From positions 8,434,001 to 8,498,000 of the forward strand of contig CM075994.1 in the NCBI GenBank assembly GCA_038087875.1: a DNA stretch of 64,000 bases, written 5' to 3'. Every line of letters begins with the position of its first letter. Position 1 is the stretch's first letter. Positions 3,015 through 52,264 of this stretch are shown here, piece after piece. The translations under genes and the position numbers were made by a program. Below the pieces are notes generated by a model. It worked only from the letters and a program-made list of their open reading frames with translations. It was not told the origin of the DNA and searched no databases. The DNA comes from Malacoraja senta (Eukaryota).

Positions 3015-4473
3015 GTAAGAAAAAACGCGATCTCGTTTATTTGCGTCTTTGGAGTGTTTTTAAAAATATGGCAATCTGAAACTGGACTGTCATATGAGGA
3101 AAGATTGAAAAGACTCGGCTTGTATTCACTGGAGTTTAGAAGGATGAGGGGGGATCTTATAGAAACATATACAATTATAAAAGGACTGGACAAGCTAGAT
3201 GCAGGAAAAATGTTCACAATCTTGGGCCAGAACCAGGGGCCACAATCTTAGAACAAAGGGGAGGCCATTTAAGACTGAGATGAGAAATAACGTATTCACC
3301 CAGAGGGTTGTGAATTTGTGGAATTCCCTGCCACAGAGGGCAGTGGAGGCCAAATCACTGGATGGATTTAAGAGAGAGTTAGATAGAGCTCTAGGGGCTA
3401 GTGCAATCAAGGGATATGGGGAGAAGGCAGGCACTGGTTATTGATTGGGGTCGATCAGCCATGATCACAATGAATGGCAGTGCTGGCTCGAAGGGCTGAA
3501 TGGCCTCCTGCACCTATTTTCTATCTTTCTATGAAATAAAAGCAAGGGGGGTGTGGATCACATGCGGGCAAATGAATGTAGTTTAACTCAACACGGTGGC
3601 GCAGCGGTAGGGTTGATGCCTCACAGCGCTGGAGACCCTGGTTCAATCCTGACTACAGATGCTGTCTGTATGGAGTTTGCACGTTCTCCCCGTGACCTGC
3701 GTGAGTTTGCTCCGAGATCTTCGGTTTCCTCCCCCACTCCAAAGACGCAAAGGTTTGTAGCTTAATTGGCTTTGGTAAAACTGTAAACCACTGCCCTTTG
3801 TGTGAAAAGTTTTCCCCTCAGATTCCTATTAAATCTTTTCCCCTTCACCTTAAACCTATGTCCTCTGGTCCTACATTCCCCGATTCTGGGCAAGAAACTC
3901 TGTGCATCTACCCGATCTATTCCTCTCATGATTTTATACACCTTTGCAAGATCACCCCCCAGCCTCCTGCGCTCCAAGGAATAGAGACCCAGCCAACTCA
4001 ACCTCTCCCTGTAGCTCACGCCCTCTAGTCCTGGCAACATCCTCGTAAGTCTTTTCTGAATCCTTTCAAGCTTGACAATATCTTTCCTATAACATGGTCC
4101 CGAGAACTGAACGCAATAATTTAAATGCGGCCACACCACGGCCGCGCAACTTCTGTGAACACGTTTAAGAAAGAACTGCAGATGCTGGAAAAATCAAAGG
4201 CAGACAAAAATGCTGGAGAAACTCAGCGGGTGAGACATGCAACGATTGCATGAGGCTGCCTCACCCGTTGAGTTTCTCCAGCATCTTTGTCTACCTTCTG
4301 TGAACACGTGCTTTGATGCCTGCGATCCGCGGCGGGATCCATGTGTACCCGTGATAGATGTGGTCCGTGGCGTGAAGGTTGTTCTCACGCCAACCCGCGA
4401 TGTCACAGACTAAAGAAGTCCCTCCCCTCATCTCCTTCCTCCTGGCGCAAGTGAACTGTTTTTTGTATTTTAG

Positions 4474-4668
4474 TGGGCCAGTACAAGGATGAAGCCATGA
4501 TGACTTGTTGCAAGGATGGTATCAGCTTGATCCCAATGAGGAGAAGGTGTGAGGATCGGGCCAAGAAGGTGCTGGATGAGAAGTGTCGGAAGACCTTCCT
4601 TGACTGCTGCCAGTACGCGATGGAGCTGAGAAGGAACCAGACCTATGCGGCGGATACCGTGGGGAGAT
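4474..4668 (+). CDS. C4: C4 exon (~E17), C4a anaphylatoxin: LGQYKDEAMMTCCKDG...CEDRA...CRKTFLDCC...TVGR
   Basis: tttag| acceptor, T|gtaagt donor; six-Cys anaphylatoxin pattern CC-C-C-CC ending at Arg. Confidence 0.95.
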
Positions 4669-29887: not shown

Positions 29888-30091
29888 GCGATGTGATGGG
29901 AGATACGGTGGAGAATTCCCTGGATGCGGAAGGCATCGATAAGCTCATCAATTTACCAACGGGATGCGTAGAGCAGACGTCTATAATGATGGCGCCTGCT
30001 GTCTACGCCATCAGGTACCTGGACAAGAGCGAGCAGTGGATCTCGCTGAAGCCTGAACGGAAGGACGAGGCGCTGCAATTCATCGAGTCAG
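29888..30091 (+). CDS. C4: C4 thioester exon (~E24): ...LINLPTGCVEQTSIMMAPAVYAIRYLDKSEQWISLKPERKDEALQFIES
   Basis: ctccag| acceptor, G|gtgggc donor; CxEQ thioester motif at 29965-29976; RYLDxxEQW motif. Confidence 0.96.
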
Positions 30092-30841
30092 GTGGGCACG
30101 ACTTTTAATGGCTCCCCTTCTCAAGCCTCACCACTCATTATCACAGTCGTGGAGTCACAGGCCACACAAACAGACCCCGCCGGCCGGGCTGGTCCGCGCC
30201 CACCACAATGTTCCCCAAGAGAGAGCGTGCTGTCAACAATGTAGTAAATGAGACCAAAAACCATCTTTATAAAAAAAATTAAAAAACATTCACTTATATA
30301 TTTAAATAGATAAATAAATAAACAAATAGATAAATAGACAAATAAACAAGCAGGCAGATAAATAGGTAGATAAATAAATAACTAGATAAATATATACACG
30401 CACACACACACATACACACACAGACACACACAGAGACACTCAGACACAGACACACACACACTTACACATAAACATACACACCTCTATATATTTAAATAGA
30501 CAGACACAGACAGAGAGACAGACACATAGATACACAGACACAGACAAACACACGCAAGGGTCTGAATATTTAATCAACGTTATTCCCTGCATCTAATGCT
30601 TGCATCCATGGCAAATCTGTCAGCATCGTGGCTGTGATTTTGACACAAATGACGAAGGGTCCAGACACGAAACATCACCCATTCCTTCTCTCCAGAGATG
30701 TTGCCTGTACCCGCGTAGTTACTGGACCAGATCTATCTTTGGTTTAACCGAGCGTCTGCAGTTCCTTCCAGCACACTGAAGGAGCTGATGTTTACTGTAT
30801 GTCTTGGGCTGCCTTCCTCACATCCAGTGTCTCGTTCACAG

Positions 30842-30896
30842 GCTACACGAGGCTCGTACAATTTAAAAGGCCGGATGGTTCTTACGGCAGCACCTG
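30842..30896 (+). CDS. C4: C4 exon (~E25), shortened: GYTRLVQFKRPDGSYGSTW
   Basis: cacag| acceptor, TG|gtaggt donor; phase 1-2; DGSY and STW motifs. Confidence 0.92.
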
Positions 30897-30934
30897 GTAG
30901 GTTTGAGTTGTCATGGGAACGGTTTTTACCCTAA

Positions 30935-31145
30935 TGGTCCTGTCCCACTTGGGCGTCATTTGCGCGTCATGCAGGTGGCGCGCGAGGATTTTGAGAATCC
31001 CCAAACCCTGGGGCGCCACGTGCGACAGCGCGTCACTGCCTACGCCACCACATCTCACCACATGCCATGCGCGCGTTGTGCATTGTGACGCGTAAATTAT
31101 GTCGCGTGAATGACACGCAAATAACGCCCAAGTGGGACAGGCCCT
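30935..31145. mobile_element. Harbinger-type MITE
   Basis: ~35-bp TIRs GTCCTGTCCCACTTGGGCGTCATTTGCG / CGCAAATAACGCCCAAGTGGGACAGGCC; flanks TAA/TGA. Confidence 0.8.
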
Positions 31146-32343: not shown

Positions 32344-32500
32344 GTTAACAGCATTTATCGCTAAGATATTCTCAACTGTTCGCAATCATATCCAGATCGA
32401 GCATGAATACGTTCAGCGAGCTGTCTTGTACGTTATGGGATGGCAGAAGGAGCCTGGATACTTTGTTGATGACCAACCGATGTGGCATATGGATGTGAAG
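32344..32500 (+). CDS. C4: C4 exon (~E26), isotype/catalytic region: WLTAFIAKIFS...GYFVDDQPMWHMDVK
   Basis: tgcag| acceptor, AAG|gttgta donor; 157 nt; WLTAF motif; His codon at 32486-32488. Confidence 0.93.
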
Positions 32501-38419: not shown

Positions 38420-38616
38420 AAACGGATACTCGACATTGGAAGATTGACCAGAAAACGTGGATAGGCGGAGCACGGAAGGCCTTCGCAGTCGAGGTGGAAG
38501 CCACGGCTTATGCACTCCTGGCCGCGGTCACTATGGAAGACCTCCAGTACGCCAACGCCATTGTAAGGTGGCTGACGGAACAGCGGAACTACGGCGGCGG
38601 ATTCCAATCCACGCAG
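38420..38616 (+). CDS. C4: C4 exon (~E29): ETDTRHWK...VEATAYALL...RWLTEQRNYGGGFQSTQ
   Basis: VEATAYALL and GGFxSTQ motifs; CAG|gtaggt donor; acceptor gagcag| fits the phase but has no pyrimidine tract. Confidence 0.9.
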
Positions 38617-39050
38617 GTAGGTCCCGTGCCATGTTTTGGGAACCGCCTCCATCCAAGCCGACTAGACAATAGACAATAGGTGCAGGAGTAGGCCATTCGG
38701 CTCTTCGACCCAGCACCGCCATTCAATGTGATCGTGGCTGATCATCCCCAATCAGTACCCCGTTCCTGCCTTCTCCCCATATCCCCTGACTCCGCTATCG
38801 GTAAGAGCCCTATCTAGCTCTCTCTTGAAAGCATCCAGAGAACCCGCCTCCACCGCCCTCTGAGGCAGAGAATTCCACAGACTCGCAACTCTCTGTGAGA
38901 AAAAGTGTTTCCTCGTCGCCGTTCTAAATGGCTTACTCCTTATTCTTAAATTGTGGCCCCTGGTTCTGGACTCCCCCAACATCGGGAGCATGTTTCCTGC
39001 CTCTAGTGTGCCAAACCCTTAACAATCTTATATGTTTCAATAGAAACATA

Positions 39051-39143
39051 TAAATGACAGAGATAGACACAAGGTAGACAGAGATAGAAATGACAGAGAT
39101 AGACACAAGGTAGACAGAGATAGAAATGACAGAGATAGACACA
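39051..39143. repeat. Short tandem repeat, ~36-bp unit x 2.5
   Basis: AAATGACAGAGATAGACACAAGGTAGACAGAGATAG repeated. Confidence 0.85.
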
Positions 39144-40891
39144 AAAAGCTGGAGTAACTCAGCGGGTCAGGCAGCATTTCTGGAGAGAAGGAATTGGTCT
39201 TAAGAAGGGTCTTGACCTGAAACGTCACCCATTCCTTCTCTCCGGAGATGCTGCCTGTCCCGCTGAGTTAATCCAGCTTTTTGTGTCTATCGTTGGTTTA
39301 AACTGGCATCTGCAGATCCTTCCTATATATCACAGAGTTGTGGATGCAGCCCAGACCCTGATTTGTTCGGGCGTCAGGGGTTATGGGGAGAAGACAGGAC
39401 AATGGGGTCAGGAGGGAGATATAGATCAGCGATGACTGAATGGCGGAGTAGATACGATGGGCCGAATGGCCTAATTCTGCTCGTATCACTTGAGAACCAT
39501 CACACAAACCAACCTCCCTTCAATTGACTCGACCTACACCTCACGCTGCCTCGGTAAGGCTAGCAGCATAATCAAGGACCAGTCGCAGCCGGGCCACTCC
39601 CTCTTCTCCCCTTTCCCATCAGGCAAGAGGTACAGAAGTGTGAAAACGCACACCTCCAGAATCAGGGACAGTTTCTTCCCGGCTGTTATCAGGCAACTGA
39701 ACCATCCTACCACAACCAGAGAGCAGTCCTGAACTACTATCTACCTCATTGGTGACACTCGGAATATCTTTGATCGGACATTACTGGCTTTACCCTGCAC
39801 TAAAAGTTATTCCCCTTATCCTGTATCTGCACACTGTGGACGGCTTGTTTACATGGTCTCTCTGTGACCCCGTGGGTTTCTTCCCACATCTCAAAGACGT
39901 GCTGGTTTGTAGGTTAATCGGACCTCTGTAAAATCGCCCCCTAGTGGATGAGCAAGTTGGATAACGTGGAACTTGTGTGAACGGGCGATCGCTGGTCGGC
40001 ATGGACCCGGTGGGCTGAAAGGCCTGTTTCCATGCTGTATCTCTAAACTATACTAAATATTCTCAGACTGACCCCCCCCCCCCCGCCACCCCCTCTCTCC
40101 CCAGTGACCCACCTGGACTCGCACCTATTTCTCCCCTCTCCGTCCCCTTCCACAGACTCCTTCCTCCAGCTTCACAATTCGCAACTCATCGATCCCTTTG
40201 TCTCGCTCCTTCTGTCTTTACATCTTTGGCCTTTGTTGAACCGTCCGCCTATATCAACCGCTCCCCTCACCTGTATCTATATTACCTGCCAGAATTTGTG
40301 TCGCTCCCACCTCTCTTCCAGCTTTCCCCACCCCACAATCACTCAAGAAGGGTCCCGACCCAAATTGTAACCTATCCATTTTATTCTCCCGAGATGCTGC
40401 CTGACCCACTGAGTTACTCCAGCACTTTGTGTCCTGTTGTGCATTAACTAGCATCTACGCTAACTAGCACCCGAACCACGCCCACTCCGGGTACTTTCCC
40501 TTGCAACTGCAAGAAAAGCTACACTTGTTGCTTTACCTCCCCCCTTGACTACATCCAAGGACCCAAGCAGTCTTTCCAGGTGCGGCAGAGGTTCACCTGC
40601 ACCTCCTCCAACCTCATCTATTGCATCCGCTGCTCTATATGTCAGTTGCTCGACAACGGTGAGACCAAGCGTAAGCTTGGCGATAACTTCGCCCAACACC
40701 TCCGCTCGGTCCGCAAAAACCAACCTGATCTCCCGGTGGCTCAGCACTTCAACTCCCCCTCCATTCCGAATCCGACCTTTCTCTCCTGGGCCTCCTCCAT
40801 GGCCAGAGTGAGGACCACCGTAAATTGGAGGAGCAGCACCTCATATTGCCCTTGGGCAATTTGCACCCCAGCGTTATGAACATTGACTTCT

Positions 40892-43800
40892 TTTGTGATA
40901 TAATTTTTTATTAGAAGCAAACATATTATAATGTAGAGTAACATATTATAATAGGAGAAGAAAAAACTTTTCATATACATCAATCACTCATACATTATTA
41001 AATTTGTCAATTGTCAGTTAATTCTGCTTCTAGTGTTTTTTTTAATATAGATAGAAAAAGAAAAATAGAGAGAAAGAAGAATTACAATATCAAAAAAGAA
41101 AAAGAGGTGGAATGAATTACTTATAATACGTCATAGGAGATAAGTTCGTAGGTTATGAAATATAATTACATCTAATCCTGAGTTCAAGCTTCAGTTGGGC
41201 TTTTGCGCTGGGCCACTCTATCCCTTCAAATAGGCAATGAATGGAGCCCACATTTTAACAAAAAGTTCTTGCTTGTCCATTAAGACAAGTCTAATTCTTT
41301 CTAGATGTAGGGTCTCCGACATTTCCACAATCCACATTTTAATTGTGGGGGTTGTAGGGCCTTTCCAGAATGTTAATATTAATTATTTCCCAGTTATTAT
41401 GCTGTAGTCAAGGAAGTTTCTTTGGCTTGTTGTGAGTGTTAAACTTTGTTCTGATATCCCAAGTATTATTAATTTTGAGTCTGGAGCCAAATTGGTATTA
41501 ACAACTTCAGAAATTATTTGAAAAATATCAGTCCAGTAATTTTTAATTTTTATACAATTTGCAAATGTATGTGTTAAATTGGCCTCTAGATGCAGGCATT
41601 TATCACATATAGGAGAGATATGTGGGAAAATTCTATTTAGTTTTATTTTGGAGTAATGTAATCTGTGCAAGACTTTAAATTGTATTAAAGCATGTCTGGC
41701 ATTTAACGAACATTGATGTATATGTTGTAAACTTTCGTCCCAAATATCTTTCGTAATAGGATAACCTAACTCATTTTCCCATTTATGTCTATATAGTTCC
41801 ATCGGTGGTACCTCGTTATTTAGGAGAATGTTATAAATATAAGCTATTAATTTTACAGTGTTAGGATGCTTATTCAAACATTCATCAAGAATTTCTGGTT
41901 CCCTAGTCCTATAAACTTGTGTATTGGATTTAACATAGTCTCTAATTTGTAAATACCTGAAAAAGTTATTTGAGTGTAGTCCATGATTCTGTTGTAACAC
42001 TTGAAATGACAGAAAGATGCCTTCCGTATAAAGATGTCCAATCCTTTTAATTCCATAATTTTTCCATTGTATAAAACCTCTATCCAATATGGATGGCTTG
42101 AATAGAGGATTATTTACAATGGGAAGACATAGTGGTATATTATTCAGTTTTAAAGCCTTTTTTAATTGTTTCCAAATTCGTCTTCCACTATGTATTATAG
42201 GGTTTCCTTATAGTTTTTTTAATGCAATTTTGTGGTAGCAAATATAATCGAACCTATTTCAAAAGGTAAACAGTCTTCCTTTTCCATCCTTAACCATTCT
42301 GGTTGTTGGTCCATTTCTTCCAGCCAGAAATTCATGTTTTTAATATGGACTGCCCAAAAATAAAATACGAAATTTGGCAAGGCCAAACCTCCGTTGCTCT
42401 TTGACTTACATAAATGTTTTTTACTTATTCTATGATTCTTATAATCCCAAATAAAGCTTGTAACAATCGAGTCGACTTTTTTGAAAACGTTTTTTGGAAT
42501 ATATATCGGAATTAATTGAAATAAATATAGTAGTTGCGGTAAGAAAATCATTTTTATAGCATTAATTCTACCAAGCATTGAAATAGGAAGTGTTTTCCAG
42601 TACTGAATATGTTTGTGTAATTTATTGAGTAAGGATGGAAAATGTTGTTTAAATAAAGAGGTATATGTCTTAGTTACATAGATTCCTAAATATTTAAGTT
42701 TATCTTTAACTATTTTAAAAGGGGATTGTTGTATTGTATTTAAGTTGAATTTTGTTATTGGCATGATTTCACTTTTATTCCAATTAATTCTATATCCTGA
42801 GAACTGACCAAATTGTGTTATTATATTTAATAGGTTTGGAATACTAGTTTCTAACTTTGTAATATATATTAATACATCATCTGCATATAAGGACATTTTA
42901 TTCCTTGTATCTCTAGTGTTGTATCCATGTATTCCTGGATGGTTTCTAACGCTTTCTGCTAATGGTTCAATTGCAAGAGCAAATAATAGTGGGGATAGTG
43001 AACATTTTGCTTCGGAGTCACGTGAGTGACTACGTGAAGAACTCCGCCAGTGCGCCTGCGCGTCATTACGTCAGACGCCTTGACGCAAACGGACGTGAGG
43101 AGCAGAGCTCCTCGAGTGGATTTGTAGTTTTTCAACTACAAGGTAAGTAAAAAAAAATTCAGGTTTTCCAGGTCCGTTTACTGTGGGTCTATGGGGATTT
43201 TTTCCACAGACGCCATGGAAAAAACGGACAGGGGGAAGAGGCGAGCGACACAGCCGACAGAAGTCGGGAAAGTCGGGAGTCCGCGGTTAGAGACCAACCG
43301 CCTCTAAACCCCGGTACAGTCGCCAGCGGTGAGCATAGCGACTGTGGACCTGGGGCTGGTGAAAACACTGTCAGCGCCTGTCGGGCAAAAGACACAGTTT
43401 AAATCCCAACGGCCCACGGAGGGAGTCCCAGGCAATGTAAGTAGCTCCAGGGCTAGAAACTGCTTTCGAGCATATTGCCCAAATAGAAAGCCTTTTACAT
43501 AGGCTGTTGGAGCAAAGTTCACTCAGGGAGGAGTGTACTGAAAGCAAGCTGCTGGAAACAGCTCAAACAGCTCCTGGTACAGGGCTAGATACTGCTTTCG
43601 AGCATGTTACCCAAATAGAAAGCCTTTTACATAGGCTGTTGGAGCAAAGTTCACTCAGGAAGGAGTGTACTGTAATCCAAGCTGCAGGAGCAGCTTAACA
43701 GCACCTGGCTCAGGGCTGATGGAATGCACCCTCAGGAATGAGGAGCGTGCTACGGGTCATGAGATTTCAGACCCCGACTCTGACGGTGAGGCTGTAGAAG

Positions 43801-46800
43801 GCGATGAACGGCAGCTGCCAGATGTTCCACTCCTGGCAGTAGGATTCGCTGCCCCGTCAGGGTCAGGAGAGCCATTAGGAGAAGAACTGGCCTCCTTTAT
43901 AAATTACTTGGTTTACCATTAGCTGGAACAGCAGGAAATGGATGAGACTGCAAGAAGTAACTGTGGGCAGCAGTGAATCAAATTATCTGGAATCAGTTGC
44001 AGAGAATATTAAAGCTGCTGGGTTCTGGAATAACTGCTTTTGCCAGAATAGCAGAAAAAAGCCAAGAGATGACGGAGTTGCATCAGGAAACACTGGGGTT
44101 GCTATGCAGCACCCACTTCGAGACAATTGTCTGAGGAAAAGTGTGATACGGCCTACTATGAATCCAAAATTCGCAGCACTCTGCAAACCAAGTAATATAC
44201 AATTACCCAACTTACTCTTTGGAGAGGATCTCGGGAGACATATTAAAGAGTTGGAAGATGAAGCGAAAACAGGATTGATGAAGACATCAATGGTGTGAAG
44301 TCTGTAAAGAGGAAGTATCCTTTCAGACGTCATACGGATCCTGGACCAAGTCGCTCATCAACGCAGGGACGTAGTTGGCGGCCTGCAGCGGGAGTAAGAA
44401 CCAGTGGGCGTGCTTCCGGGAGAACCCAGGAATCTCAGGGTACTCAAATGACTCAAGAGGTAGGTGGACCTGGTTCTCATGGGAACATACTAACTGGATT
44501 AAGTCCAAAAGTTGGAGGCAAGTTACGTTTCTTTTATAATAATTGGAAGAAAATTACTTCAGAATGTGGTAATCCTGAATCATATACAAGGATTTTGAAT
44601 TGAATTCAATCCAAATTATGATTTGCCTGTTCAGCATGTTCCTAGCCGAACTCTGCACTTTGTACAAAAAGAAGTGATGGAGGTTCAGGTTGCACTTGAA
44701 ACCCTATATAAAAAAGGGGTTATTGAAAAAATCAGTCTACCAAAGTCACCAATTTGTGTGAAATATATTCCCTCGATCAAAAAAGGATGGAGGATGTAGG
44801 ATTATTCTAGATTTGACAAATCTGAATCCTTTTGTGCAATTTAGACATTTTAAAATGGAAACATTTGTGACTGCCAAACAGCTTATTTCAGAAGCATGTT
44901 ATATGGCAACTATAGACTTGAAAGATGCATATTATTCAGTGTCTGTTCATTCAGAGATAGGATATCTTAAATTTAAATGGATGAACCAGTTGTGGCAGTT
45001 CAAAGCTCTGCCTAATGGGTTAACATCTGCACCCAGAATATTCACAAAATTGTTAAAACCAATTCTGGGTTTGCTGAGAAGCCAGGGGCATGTACTCATG
45101 GCATATTTGGATGATGTCTTGATTATAGGAAAGACAAAACAGTCAACAGAAGCATCTGTTGCAGTTGTGAAATCAACTTTTGAAAATTTGGGGTTTCTAA
45201 TTCATCCAAAGAAATCTAGGTTAACACCATGTACCTCTATTAATTATTTGGGGTTTACAATTGATTCAGTCCAAATGAATATTACTTTGCCCAGGGAAAA
45301 AGGGTGGATTTGATTGAAGATTGTAGTAATCTCCTAAACGAGCAAAAACCCTCAATTAGACAGGTGGCTCGTGTACTGGGGAAATTAGTAGCAGCATTCC
45401 CAGCAGTTCAATTTGGACCATTACATTATCAACAGCTGCAGAGAATTAAAGAACAGGCGCTGAGAAAGCATGTTGGTCATTTTTGATAGAACCATGCAAC
45501 TAACAACAAATGCAGTTTCTGATCTGCAGTGGTGGATTCTACATGTCTCAAGCAGTTCCAGCAAAGGGCTGATTGAACAATCTTCCATGATATTAGAAAC
45601 TGATGCCAGTGCACTAGGATGGGGTGCAACTGACTTAACATCTAGCTGCGGAGGCAGATGGAATCAGGAAGAGTCATTGTTACTGCAGACATGGGGAATT
45701 AACTATTTGGAGCTTCTAGGATGTTTCTATGGGCTCCAGGCTTACTGTTCTAACACAACTAATAAACATGTTCAAGTTCAAATTGATAACACAACAGCAG
45801 TTGCCTATATTAATCATATGGGTGGAATATAGTAACCAGATTTGGAATGACCGACATCGACTTGAATCATCAGCTATCGAGATATGTCTCATGGAAACCA
45901 GATCCAGGAGCAGTGGCGATTGATGCTTTCTCGCTACATTGGGGTGGTATGTTTTCATATATATTTCCACCTTTCTGCCTCATAAGCCAATGTTTGCTTA
46001 AAATCAGGCAAGATGCTGCTTCAAGGGTGTTGGTAGTACCAGATTGGCCTATACAGCCATGGTATCTGTTGATATTAGAATTAACAACACAAATGTTCAT
46101 GAAAGTCCCAAAAAGGAGTAATTTATTGTTGTACTCTGTAACAGGGTAACAACATCCATTATACCATCGTTTGGATTTGTTGATTTGCAGGTTTTAAGAA
46201 TGCCTTTTCTGGGACGAGGACTGTCTGAGCATACTGTGGACATGCTTACGGCAGCCGGGAGGAAGAGCACTCAAAAACAGTACCTTTCTTATATTAAGAA
46301 ATGGGAAGAGTTCTGTGTACAAAAGAATGTGCAATAAAGTACTGCAGATATTTCAAATGTTTAGAATTTCTGCCAAAACTTTATTATGATGAAGGTCTGA
46401 GTTGTAATGCAATTAATTCAGCCAGAAGTGCATTGTCCTCATATTTGGTTCTGGATTCAGAAAGAAACTCAATTGGGTCACACCCAATTGTTTCCAGACT
46501 AATGAAAGGAATCTTTAATTCCAAACCACCGAAACCTAGGTACGTGACAATCTGGGATGTAAGTGTGGTACTGAAACTACTTCGTGAATGGTCATCAAGT
46601 GTGTCTTTACCTTTGGTCAAGCTCAGTATGAAAGTATTCATGCTTATGGCATGAGTGACAGCACAACGAGTGCAAACACTTGGAAAATTACAAAAAGACA
46701 GTATGGAAGTAACTGAAAACAAGGTTACATTCTATATCTATGACCTACTAAAGTAAATTAGGCCAGGTATGACAGGATTTAAAATTATGCTAGCAGCATA

Positions 46801-49384
46801 TCCAAATGATCCATGTCTCTGTATTAAGACATATTTATTAAAATACATTGAGGTCACAAAGAATTTGAGAATACGGAAACTGGGTTGTTGATCACACACA
46901 AGAAACCACACAAGAGAGTTTCAATACAGACTATTTCCAGATGGATAAAAGAAGTCTTAACAGCTGCTGGTATTAACACTTATGTTTTTACGTCTCACTC
47001 GCCTAGGGCAGCAGAAACGTCGGCGGCCAGGGCAAAAGACGGCCCCGTCGACCATATCCTCGCAGCCGCCGGCTGGTCCAATGAGTTGATGTTTCAACAT
47101 TTTTACCATCGGCCTATTGTTAATGCGGGGTTGTTTGCAGAAACTATTTTAAGTTCTGTGTAAATTCCTCTGGTTTAAAGGGGATCTGATTCATTTCATT
47201 ATTGAAATGAATTACTGCATTTGTGGTACAAATGTTATTATGAATGCATGATTGATTATTCTCGTTCCGAGTCAATCTATGCAGTGAGAAGCCGGGATTG
47301 ATCCACGGCATGAAATCACAAAGCTTTAAAATCTTCACGTAGTCACTCACGTGACTCCGAAGTAAAATAGTAAGATTAAACGAGAACTTACTTAAGTTTG
47401 AAGTTTGATCTTTATTTTATGAGGAGTTACGTAGGTGATTACGTGCCCACCACGACCCTACCCTCTATCATAAAGGTCAGATGGAAGTTCTTGTATTACT
47501 CGTTTTATTATGAGACTATATTACTTCGGTTGTTGTTTTTTGTGATTTCACACCGCTGCTTTGAAGATTGACGCGCAGGCGCACTGGTGGGGTTCTTCAC
47601 GTAATCACCCACGTAACTCCTCATAAAATAAAGATCAAACTTCAAACTTAGGTAAGTTCTCGTTTAATCCTACTATCCTTGTCTACAACCTCTAGAAAGA
47701 TTAAATTTGGCTGATAACATTTGATTTGTTAATATTCTAGCTGTTGGATTAGAGTATAACAATTTAACCCATGTAGAGTACTTCTCTCCCAATTGAAATT
47801 TTTTCATTACCGAAAATAAATATGTCCATTCTACCTGGTCAAATGCCTTTTCAGCATCTAACGAAATAATTGCTAGATCTGCATTTGGAATTCTATTTGT
47901 ATATATAATATTGAATATTCTTCTCAAATTATAAAATGAGTAACGTTTTGGAATAAAACCTGTTTGGTCCGGGTGTATTAATTTGTTAATCACTAAGCTC
48001 AATCTATGAGATAGGATTTTGGTTAATATTTTCTGATCAGTATTTAAGAGAGCTATTGCTCTATATGAACCTGGGTCTTCAGGGTCCTTATCCGGTTTCG
48101 GTATAAGTATGATTGTAGATTCATTTAGAGTTTCTGGAACTTTCTGTTGAGTATAAGCTTGTTTGTAAAGTCTCTATTGACGTGGAGAAATCAGATCGTA
48201 ATTTTTTTTATAAAATTCAGAGCTTAGACCATCAGGACCGGCGGCCTTCCCATTTTTTAAAGATCTAATTGACTCCTCGATGTCTTTTACCGTAAATTCT
48301 ACATCTAGTGATTCTCTCTCTTTCTGATCTAGACCTGTAAGATTACATTTCTGTAGAAATGTTTCCATTCCTACTGGTTGTTCTGTCGTTTTAGATGAAT
48401 ACAATTTTTGATAATATTGTAAAAATCTATCATTAATATCTTTAGGTAGTGTTAATGTTTCTCCCTTATCTGATCTAATTTTGTAAATTGTTTTTTCCCC
48501 GTCCTGTTTACGAAGTTGACGCGCCAATAGTTTTTGTGATTTATCTCCAAATTCAAAATTTAATTGTTTTGTACGTTGATATAGTTTTATTACTTGGTCT
48601 GAGTATATCTTGTTTAACTTATATTTCAGTACTGCAATTTTATTGTGTTTTACCATAGATCGTGCTATTGCATTTTCTATGTCTAATTGCCTTAATTCCG
48701 TTTCCAAAGACTGTTGTTTGGCCCTATTCTCTTTGTTAATAAATGATTGGGAGGAGATTAATGCTCCTCGCACAAATGCTTTAAATGTTTCCCAAAGAAG
48801 GGAGGCGGAGATTCCAGGGCTGTCATTAGCCTCGAAAAACATATTAATCTGTTTTACGAGGTATTCATTACATGGCTTTTCTTTCAAGATTTGGAGGTTA
48901 AGTCTCCATTGTGTCTTTGTCTCGGTCATTCCGTTTAGTTTAATCATAAATGTTAGTGGAGCATGGTCCGATATTATAATATTATGATATTGCGAATTAT
49001 AGGTAAATGGGATAAGTTTAGAGTCTACTAAGAAATAGTCTATCCTTGAGTAAGTTTTATGCACGGGTGAGTAGAATGAGTATTCTCGACCAGATGGGTT
49101 TTCAATTCTCCAAACATCCTTAATGTTGGTAGTATTAATATATGAATTTAGAAATTCACTTGACTGAGATTTTAATTTTCTTTGACTTGATGATCTATCC
49201 AAGTAAGCATCCAGTGTACAATTTAAGTCTCCACCGATAATTAAGTTATGTTGTGTACATTCCGGGATAATGTTAAGTATTCTCTTAAAGAAGAGGGGGC
49301 TATCAAAATTTGATCCATACACATTAAGGAGAGTCACTTAATGTGTATGAGTATAACTCCCCTACTAATAAAATATATCTGCTT
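40892..49384 (-). mobile_element. L1-clade LINE (5'-truncated ORF2: APE endonuclease, RT, C-terminal Cys motif), split by a DIRS element
   Basis: NVY, GDLN, SRIDY, SDH; LDAEKAFD, RGCRQG|CSLSP, YADD; CDKC...H...C; 15-bp TSD TGAACATTGACTTCT at 40877-40891 and 49385-49399; AT-rich. Confidence 0.92.
43005..47675 (+). mobile_element. DIRS1-type tyrosine-recombinase retrotransposon, structurally complete, ORFs decayed
   Basis: 5' TTTT start; inverted terminal repeats; internal complementary region 47332-47445; RT (DLKDAY, YLDD), RNase H (TDAS, DNTT), methyltransferase-like (DAF..W...Y.FPP) and recombinase (HSPR, GW, Y) remnants. Confidence 0.93.
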
Positions 49385-51054
49385 TGAACATTGACTTCTA
49401 CACCGAACAAGTTAGGTCTTTATTCTTTGGAGCGCAGAAGGTTAAGAGGGGACTTGATAGAGGTCTTTAAAATTATGAGCGGGTTAGACAGTTGACGTGG
49501 ATAAGCTTTTTCCATTGAGAGTAGGGAAGATTCAAACAAGGGGACATGACTTGAGAATTAAGGGACAGAAGTTTAGGGGTAACATTAGGGGGAACCTCTT
49601 TACTCAGAGAGTGGTAGCTGTGTGGAATGAGCTTCCAGTGGAAGTGGTGGAGGCTGGTTCGATTTTATCCTTTAAAAATAGATTGGATGGGTATATGGAC
49701 GGGAAAGGAATGGAGGGTTATGGTCTGAATGCAGGTAGATGGGACTAGGGGGAAGTATTTATTTTAATTTTTAAAAAAAATTCTAAATGGTTATATGGTT
49801 ATATGGTTACAGTAGGCATCTGCAGTCCCTACTTTATCCTCCTCTTCCCAGCTCTCCCTCAGCCCACTATCTCCACCTCTTCCTATCTTCCTCCCGCCCC
49901 CACCCTCACATCAGTCTGAAGAAGGGTTTCGACCTGAAACGTTGCCTATTTCCTTTCTTCCATAGATGCTGCCTCACCCACTGAGTTTCTCCAGCATTAT
50001 TTGTCTACCTTCGATTTTCCAGCATCTGCAGGTTCTTTCTTAAACAACAGACGTTTCTTTCTATTACTTTACTTTAGCTTTGTTTAGTTTAGTTTACGGA
50101 TACAGCGTGGAAACAGGCCTTCCCGCCCACCGAGTCCGAGCCGACCAGCCATCCCCGCACACTAACACTATCCTACACACACTTGGGACAATTTTGCATT
50201 TATACCAAGCCAATTAACTTACAAACCTGAGATAGACACAAAATGCTGGAGTAAGACAATAGACAATAGGTGCAGGAGTAGGCCATTCGGCCCTTCGAGC
50301 CAGCACCGCAAAACCAAAGCAAGACACCAAGTGATGGAGTAATTCAGCAGGACAGGCAGCATCTCTGGAGAGAAGGAATTGGTGACGTTTCGGGTCGAGA
50401 CTGATGTCAGGTTAGAGGGAGATACATAGATAAGGAAGTGTAAGATGTGAAAATAAGTGTATTTAATCTCTGTTTGCTTTGTCGTTGGCGCCTCCCCGCT
50501 AACTGATCTATTCTACATTTTCCTTGATCTCCATTCCCTCTGCCCTATTTTCACGCCTGACACTTCCTTATCTATGTATCTCACTCTCCCCTCACTCTCA
50601 GTTTGAAGAAGGGACTCAACCTGAAACATCGCCCAGAAATTCTCTCCAGATATGCTGCTTGTCCCGCTGAGTTACTCCAGCACTTCTTGTCTTCTTTTGT
50701 AAACCGGCTTTTGCAGTTCCTTGTGTCTACATTCTCAGGTTGGCTTGGTTGTGTGCTGCAGAGTTGTGGCAATCACATCATTGAATTGGAATGGGTCAAT
50801 TAATCGGTCAATGGCAGTTTAATTTGAATACTGAATGAATGAATAATACATTATAATCACAAGTGACAAGTCACAGCGAGATTCTTTGCTTTGCATTCCA
50901 TACACAAGGTATGCAATGAGTCACCACCTAAAGGGCGCCACAAAGTAACAAAGCATTCCATTTAGTCCCCAATGCTGGTTTATACCTAAGATAGACACAA
51001 AATGCTGGAGTAACTTAGCAGGGTAACCAGCATCTCTGGAGAGAAGATATAGGT

Positions 51055-51082
51055 GACGTTTCAGGTCGAGACCCTTCATCAG
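51055..51082 (-). ncRNA. Putative minimal hammerhead ribozyme, antisense to C4
   Basis: Reverse complement reads CTGATGA-A-GGGT(CTCG)ACCT-GAAA-C-GTC. Confidence 0.55.
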
Positions 51083-52264
51083 ACTGAGAGTCAGGGGAGA
51101 GGGAATCGAGAGATATAGATGGTGATGGAGAGAGATATTAAACAAATGAATGAAAGATATGCAAAAAAGTAACGATGAAACAGGCGATTGTTAGCTGATT
51201 GCTAGGTGAGAACGAGAAGCTGGTGCAACTTGGGTGGGGGAAGGGATGGAGAGAGGGAAAGCAAGGGTTACTTGAAGTTAGAGAAGTCAATGTTCATACC
51301 GCTGGGGTGTAAGCTGCCCAAGCGAAATATGAGGTGCTGCTCCTCCAATTAGCGCTGGGCCTTACTCTGACAGTGGAGGAGGCCCAGGACAGAAAGGTCA
51401 GTGTGGGAATGGAAGGGGAAGTTAAAGAGTTTGACAACTGGGAGCTCAGGTAGATCTACCTTTGTTGTCCTTTGTTCTCTCTCTCTGGGCTTTCCCCACT
51501 CCCGGTCCTCCCACATGGAATTGGAATGGATTAATGGGTCATTTGGAATACTGTGAGCAAATTTGAGCCCCATATCTGAGGAAGGATGTGATGGCTCTGG
51601 AGAGCGTCCAGAGGAGGTTTATGACAACGATCCCAGAAATGAGTGAGTTGAATGAATGAATAAGTTTATTGGCCAAGTATTCACATACAAGGAATTTGCA
51701 TTGGTACTCCGCCCACAAGTGACAACATGACATGATCCCAGGAAATGAGTGGGTTAGCATATGATGCGCGTTAGACAGCACTGGGCCTGTACTAGCTGGA
51801 GTTTAGAAGGTTGAGGGGGGGGGGTACCTCATTGAAACTCACAGAATAATCAAAGGCCTGGATAGAGTGGATGTGGAGAGAATGTGTCTACTGTTGGGAG
51901 AGTCTAGGACTAGAGGTCCTCATCCTGAGAATTAAAGTGCGCTCTTTTAGAAAGGAGGTGAGGAGGAACTTCTTTAGTCAGAGGGCAGCTAATCTGTGGG
52001 ATTCATTGCCACAGAGGGTTGTGGAGGCCAAGTCAGTGGATATTGTTAGGGCAGAGAAAATAAATTCTTGATTGGAACGGGTGTCAGGGGTTATAGGGAG
52101 AAGGCGGGAGAATGGGGTTATGAGGCAGAGAGCCATGATTGAATAGGGGAGTGAACTCGATGGGCCGAATGGCCTAATTCTACTCCTATAACTTGTGAAG
52201 TTGTGATTTCAATGGTGGCCCCATTGTAAAATAGTCTCTCCCTCTCTCTCCTTTGGTCGGCAAG

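Follow-up and report, generated by a model that had tools for sequence, protein, structure and literature searches.

A skate complement C4-B gene lacking the pre-alpha4 loop of its thioester domain

The 64,000-nt stretch of Malacoraja senta DNA analysed here (the window) contains 21 exons of a complement C4 gene in which an in-frame deletion of 21 nt removes the pre-alpha4 loop of the thioester domain (TED). By its sequence the gene is orthologous to shark C4 isoform B, and the genome has two copies of it. Loss of the loop is likely to change the stability or reactivity of the thioester bond with which the protein tags microbes, and we favour, with about even confidence, the reading that skate C4-B without the pre-alpha4 loop is a working variant in which a diversifying loop has been lost and the thioester behaves differently. 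The relevant features of the window are:

978-62907, plus strand: C4-B-type gene, 21 exons inside the window
29888-30091, plus strand: thioester exon, with the Cys-Val-Glu-Gln codons (29965-29976) intact
30842-30896, plus strand: loop exon of 55 nt, with the in-frame 21-nt deletion (pre-alpha4 loop, thioester domain)
30886-30888, plus strand: deletion junction, with one GGC left of the two GGC codons that stand 21 nt apart in long forms
32344-32500, plus strand: exon that encodes helix 4 plus the catalytic loop and has the His codon (32486-32488) in the column of the H-type C4 His
38420-38616, plus strand: TED exon carrying another in-frame deletion, 18 nt long relative to the genome's own duplicate, just after a predicted beta-hairpin

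A C4-B gene without its pre-alpha4 loop

The gene spans C18:8,384,143 to about 8,525,670, and its 21 window exons, which have canonical splice sites, join into a single stop-free frame of 869 codons. Every exon found in the gene is open, and a 200-N gap at C18:8,392,509 covers one 5' exon. An anaphylatoxin exon (4474-4668) is present, and the translation contains two basic processing sites, RMKR and RSRRTKR, as expected of the three-chain form. A FastTree phylogeny of 34 sequences joins the window gene to Amblyraja (1.0), nests the pair within batoid C4-B (1.0) and keeps it separate from C4-A. The same clade holds elasmobranch C4 isoform B (the H-type, represented by Triakis scyllium C4 isoform-B, P0013, and by c4b-H in the accessible text of PMC10751288), with which the window gene has in common the thioester motif, the His column, both processing sites and the anaphylatoxin exon. 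It differs from these proteins in the absence of the pre-alpha4 loop, in reading CVEQ instead of CAEQ and in having recent skate duplicates; its TED is about 59-63% identical to other elasmobranch C4-B, whereas those are 67-78% identical among themselves. The catalytic His aligns with that of the C4-B orthologues and CVEQ is intact, which leaves the suggestion, made in the sequence-only reading, that the thioester no longer forms unsupported at this level. The closest proteins among the matches listed are Amblyraja radiata P0001 and P0002, about 90% identical to the window gene over the TED; both differ from it in that their loop is complete and Ser occupies the His column, and P0002 also in being without the thioester Cys and Gln. 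The 18-nt TED deletion is found in P0001 and is absent from P0002 and from the genome's own duplicate. A short element, about 200 nt long and ending in terminal inverted repeats, lies just behind the loop exon, at 30939-31143, and loose ends in sequencing runs X8 and X17 place it in relatives too. The intron 38617-52264 carries, at 41386-49337 on the minus strand, long frames that we take to resemble LINE endonuclease and reverse transcriptase, interspersed with plus-strand frames that presumably belong to other mobile elements.

The loop exon is preceded by AG and followed by GTAGGT, runs from phase 1 to phase 2 and translates as GYTRLVQFKRPDGSYGSTW. Comparison with the Amblyraja radiata C4-like proteins and human C4 bears out the earlier description of a 55-nt exon with seven residues missing: exactly seven are absent between DGSY and STW, where the window gene has a single residue and both Amblyraja proteins and human C4 have eight. 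DGSY and STW both lie within this exon, so a missed micro-exon had rightly been discounted. A micro-exon or an alternative long exon was also rejected by searching, tblastn in the window and a DNA search of the genome each returning one match; the window sequence contains no N.

Among the 120 homologues listed, of 1957 matches, the loop has eight residues in 118 and nine in one invertebrate protein, and one Callorhinchus gene model has a non-homologous stretch at this position. None of the 120 has a short loop, which speaks against the possibility, raised beforehand, that short loops are common in fish C4. The other vertebrate C4 proteins compared have the loop at full length, and human CD109, A2ML1 and A2M have 10 to 12 residues at the same place. 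The loss also takes with it a conserved aromatic, as had been proposed: of the 116 homologues matched, 115 have F, W or Y in that column. Searching for shorter protein fragments yielded three matches, none from skate. A full-length pre-alpha4 loop with its aromatic is a conserved feature of C4, though not one that formally defines the family, and the window gene does not have it.

The TED-MG8 seal prevents C3 and C4 from reacting with water. In an alignment with mature C3 (8oq3_A) the window thioester Cys falls at residue 988, and an ungapped count from there puts the missing aromatic column at 1047; this residue is Phe in C3 and presumably lines the hydrophobic pocket that protects the thioester. 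The sequence-only reading had identified the lost aromatic with Phe1047 in this way, and its count was right, while for the pocket role in C3 we found no paper in the open literature. In a model of the sawfish orthologue TED (48 sequences, pLDDT 87.7) the equivalent residues, 85-91, are coil flanked by a beta-bridge and by the fourth helix (93-106), and the deletion is accordingly predicted to remove the coil before TED helix 4 and to cut no helix. By eye, the short connector looked like a copy of the barrel's later GGGF-x-STQ connector; profile comparison gave nothing (probability 0.1-1.4%), and since that region of the sawfish model is of low confidence the idea of a copy is a guess.

Support for a shielding role of the loop, as distinct from the C3 residue, comes from the accessible text of the papers on mosquito TEP1 (PMC3464232, 10.1101/550475). 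Trp915, Ser921 and Phe923 of TEP1 are spaced like the aromatic, Ser and Trp of C4; by this spacing the lost coil maps to the TEP1 pre-alpha4 loop, and the seven deleted residues would match TEP1 914-920. For TEP1 alleles that differ at 919, post-cleavage half-lives of 156 h and about 10 h are reported, a single pre-alpha4 substitution thus shifting the thioester half-life about 16-fold (10.1101/550475). By analogy, the C4 loop would pack against MG8 and set the thioester half-life, and its loss would weaken the seal, leading to faster spontaneous activation or to access for other acceptor groups.

Short and long forms in related organisms

Independent DNA for the loop exon was sought in sequencing runs of other organisms, in which the best share of the neighbouring exon in any listed run was 0.50, none of the runs listed for that exon being RNA. 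Eight of the 24 runs listed were examined (organism F is among those left out); of these, X1 did not cover the loop exon and X22 yielded 0 reads. In two of the eight, from two other organisms, gap-free bridging DNA contigs show an equally long deletion at this site: X5 (organism C; contig 30801-30919, depth 8) and X17 (organism G; contig 30785-30920, depth 14), each bridging with at least 31 letters on either side. Record 31 of X7 also spans the site gap-free and was left uncounted, since its left side aligns over just 22 nt. Long forms, which have an additional 21 nt behind 30885, occur in five of the eight runs (X2, X5, X7, X8, X10), so that both forms are found in the DNA of organism C. Organisms B, C, D and G apparently have two C4-B copies, with two contig types each; these contigs demonstrate presence and never absence, and with two copies per genome alleles and paralogues are not separable from them.

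An assembly error behind the window deletion is unlikely because a loss of the same length is bridged in the DNA of two other organisms. In its favour, the runs examined are those of other organisms, 0.50 being the best share of the neighbouring exon in any listed run, the window exon is identical to a long RNA contig of organism C over 30839-30888, and the region has several assembly gaps, one of them over the same exons of the duplicate. Against these points stand the two bridged contigs, the absence of N from the window, and the deletion itself, which keeps the frame and has a 3-nt direct repeat at its ends; we regard error as very improbable. The sequence-only reading had allowed for such an error, and the equally short form in independent DNA speaks against it. 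Loop loss is common to the window gene and other skate-like organisms, and probably recurrent.

All five long DNA inserts listed start with GGC and end with CCT directly before the window's GGC; the deletion therefore lies between two GGC codons 21 nt apart, and may have arisen by slippage or end-joining between them. The short forms of organisms C and G have in common seven substitutions that are absent from the window, and four of those in organism C also occur in the long form of organism E, whose loop opens with a G-initial codon. The window exon, in turn, shows zero differences from the organism C long RNA contig over the stretch just cited. From these patterns the short form of the window and that of C and G are on different backgrounds, and therefore the loss arose twice or moved by conversion. 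The loop would on this account have been deleted probably twice, or once with spread between duplicates via a very short conversion tract, and, if there were two deletions, the G at 30889 in C and G would be explained by an E-like allele having broken one base further along.

It is improbable, in our estimate, that the short form is silent or misfolded and amounts to a null or near-null copy, tolerated while the second C4-B copy provides cover. Such a reading draws on the one RNA-like run with cover of the exon (X10, from organism C, which has both forms in its DNA): its single contig is the long form, spliced to the upstream exon, and no short-form transcript was found in it. It draws also on the second C4-B of this genome and of Amblyraja, and on the apparent one of organisms B, C, D and G. 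Against it, all exons found are open and the splice sites in the window are canonical, the ratio of non-synonymous to synonymous change given below is well short of one, and the short forms of C and G remain in frame despite their seven common substitutions. The other copy, moreover, is split in this assembly, in intron 16.

This second copy is 88-97% identical to the window gene in aligned DNA, with its 5' half at 8.24-8.28 Mb (plus strand) and the rest at 8.61-8.69 Mb (minus strand). The split ends lie at C18:8,280,264 and 8,692,420 (window-equivalent 402 and 396), on opposite strands and with no N beside either break; the split reflects either a misassembly or an inversion, about 410 kb long, that takes in the window gene. 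The thioester and loop exons of the second copy fall in an assembly gap, and its catalytic His is kept. The catalytic loop itself varies, reading HMDV in the window gene, HKDV in the duplicate and SNDM in Amblyraja. A C4-A-type gene nearby has a full loop, and the genome contains three C3-like thioester exons. At C18:8,055,248-8,055,403 the C4-A-type gene encodes Lys in the catalytic column, as do stingray and manta C4-A proteins.

Selection on the gene and on its loop

The window gene is under purifying selection relative to its duplicate. There are 43 synonymous changes at 903 sites and 72 non-synonymous changes at 3219 sites between them (dN/dS 0.46, p=1e-4), totals that include two small exons that were mis-framed or mis-aligned; over the five TED exons dN/dS is 0.38. 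The skate long forms are hypervariable at the pre-alpha4 loop: the five long DNA loops encode five different proteins, with no synonymous codon difference in any of the 10 pairs, and the Amblyraja proteins add two further loops, giving seven different long loops.

Between the window and the short exon of organism G, 10 of 55 nt differ, nine of the changes being non-synonymous, as against no more than 1 of 57 nt of the upstream intron (Fisher p=0.004); set against a background of 9-12%, the 10 of 55 is a weak excess (p=0.03-0.13). The ratio of non-synonymous to synonymous change, 9:1 in the G exon and about 11:0 in the loop (the latter a hand estimate, with roughly 12% synonymous sites), is in neither case significant alone. 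The long form of organism E shows no excess in the exon over the intron (p=0.50). For organism C the same test gives p=0.012 and is biased, the contig ends being common sequence by construction. The four loop differences between the two Amblyraja proteins show no unusual clustering. Diversifying selection on the loop is only suggested by these data, because E shows no excess, the test in C is biased, the substitution ratios are not significant and an Amblyraja copy has lost its thioester residues.

This last observation belongs to the main rival reading, which we consider possible though less likely: that thioester chemistry is dispensable in the skate C4-B duplicates, the protein being kept for other surfaces with its thioester unformed or at once hydrolysed, while the loop drifts and the GGC repeat eases deletion. 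In P0002 the thioester Cys and Gln are replaced by Asn and Val, Ser occupies the His column of both Amblyraja copies, the substitution ratios in the exon are not significantly off neutral, and several other in-frame indels occur among the skate copies; the full-loop C4-A-type gene and the C3-like thioester exons are also available in this genome. However, the window gene keeps CVEQ and His and the duplicate keeps His, the TED exons are constrained at the ratio given above, and drift alone would not be expected to make the G short exon diverge further than the intron upstream of it.

Under the reading that we favour, of a working variant, the thioester of the loop-less C4 would be less well shielded or would differ in its selectivity, and the short form would likely be the extreme of a hypervariable loop under diversifying selection. 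The data would agree just as well with the loss of a surface to which a complement inhibitor of a parasite binds. A bolder form of the idea, which we think unlikely, is that skates, much like mosquitoes with TEP1, made the loop of one C4 lineage a diversifying site and twice deleted it, giving a natural vertebrate C4 with an unshielded, fast thioester that fires without C1s or a protein that escapes a parasite inhibitor.

Comparison with known thioester proteins

The nearest functional likeness is to the *S and *R forms of Anopheles gambiae TEP1, in which the pre-alpha4 and catalytic loops are both variable and which offer a working model of tuned thioester stability (PMC3464232; 10.1101/550475). 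The accessible text of these papers presents the TEP1 variants as substitutions and describes no loop deletion, whereas the skate variants include one; TEP1 also has no anaphylatoxin or C345C domain, unlike C4. Furthermore, TEP1 *S and *R are alleles, while the skate loop forms, known from sequence alone, may be paralogues. Human C4A and C4B and the H- and D-type C4 genes described in fish (PMC7768046) are likewise duplicated C4 genes differing near the thioester, although in the accessible text of PMC7768046 and PMC10751288 the isotypes differ by a substitution of the catalytic residue, and human C4 keeps the eight-residue loop.

Elasmobranchs are described as having several c4 genes that differ at the catalytic residue and are reported in the MHC region (PMC10751288). 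In this genome none of the 88 MHC class I matches falls on C18, most being on small contigs and many near-identical, and a search of the genome for MHC class II gave no match anywhere. No account of this deletion or of loop variation in skate C4 was found in the open literature, subscription papers (including Nonaka 2017) and supplements lying outside the scope of the search.

A C4 that has lost the loop and retains Cys, Gln and His, beside near-identical long forms, is a natural pair in which the contribution of the loop to thioester stability and to the choice of acceptor could be measured. If selection drives the variation, vertebrate complement would be tuned at the same loop that separates the mosquito TEP1 alleles. 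If instead the thioester is dead, the gene would be a case of a C4 losing its covalent chemistry and yet staying conserved.
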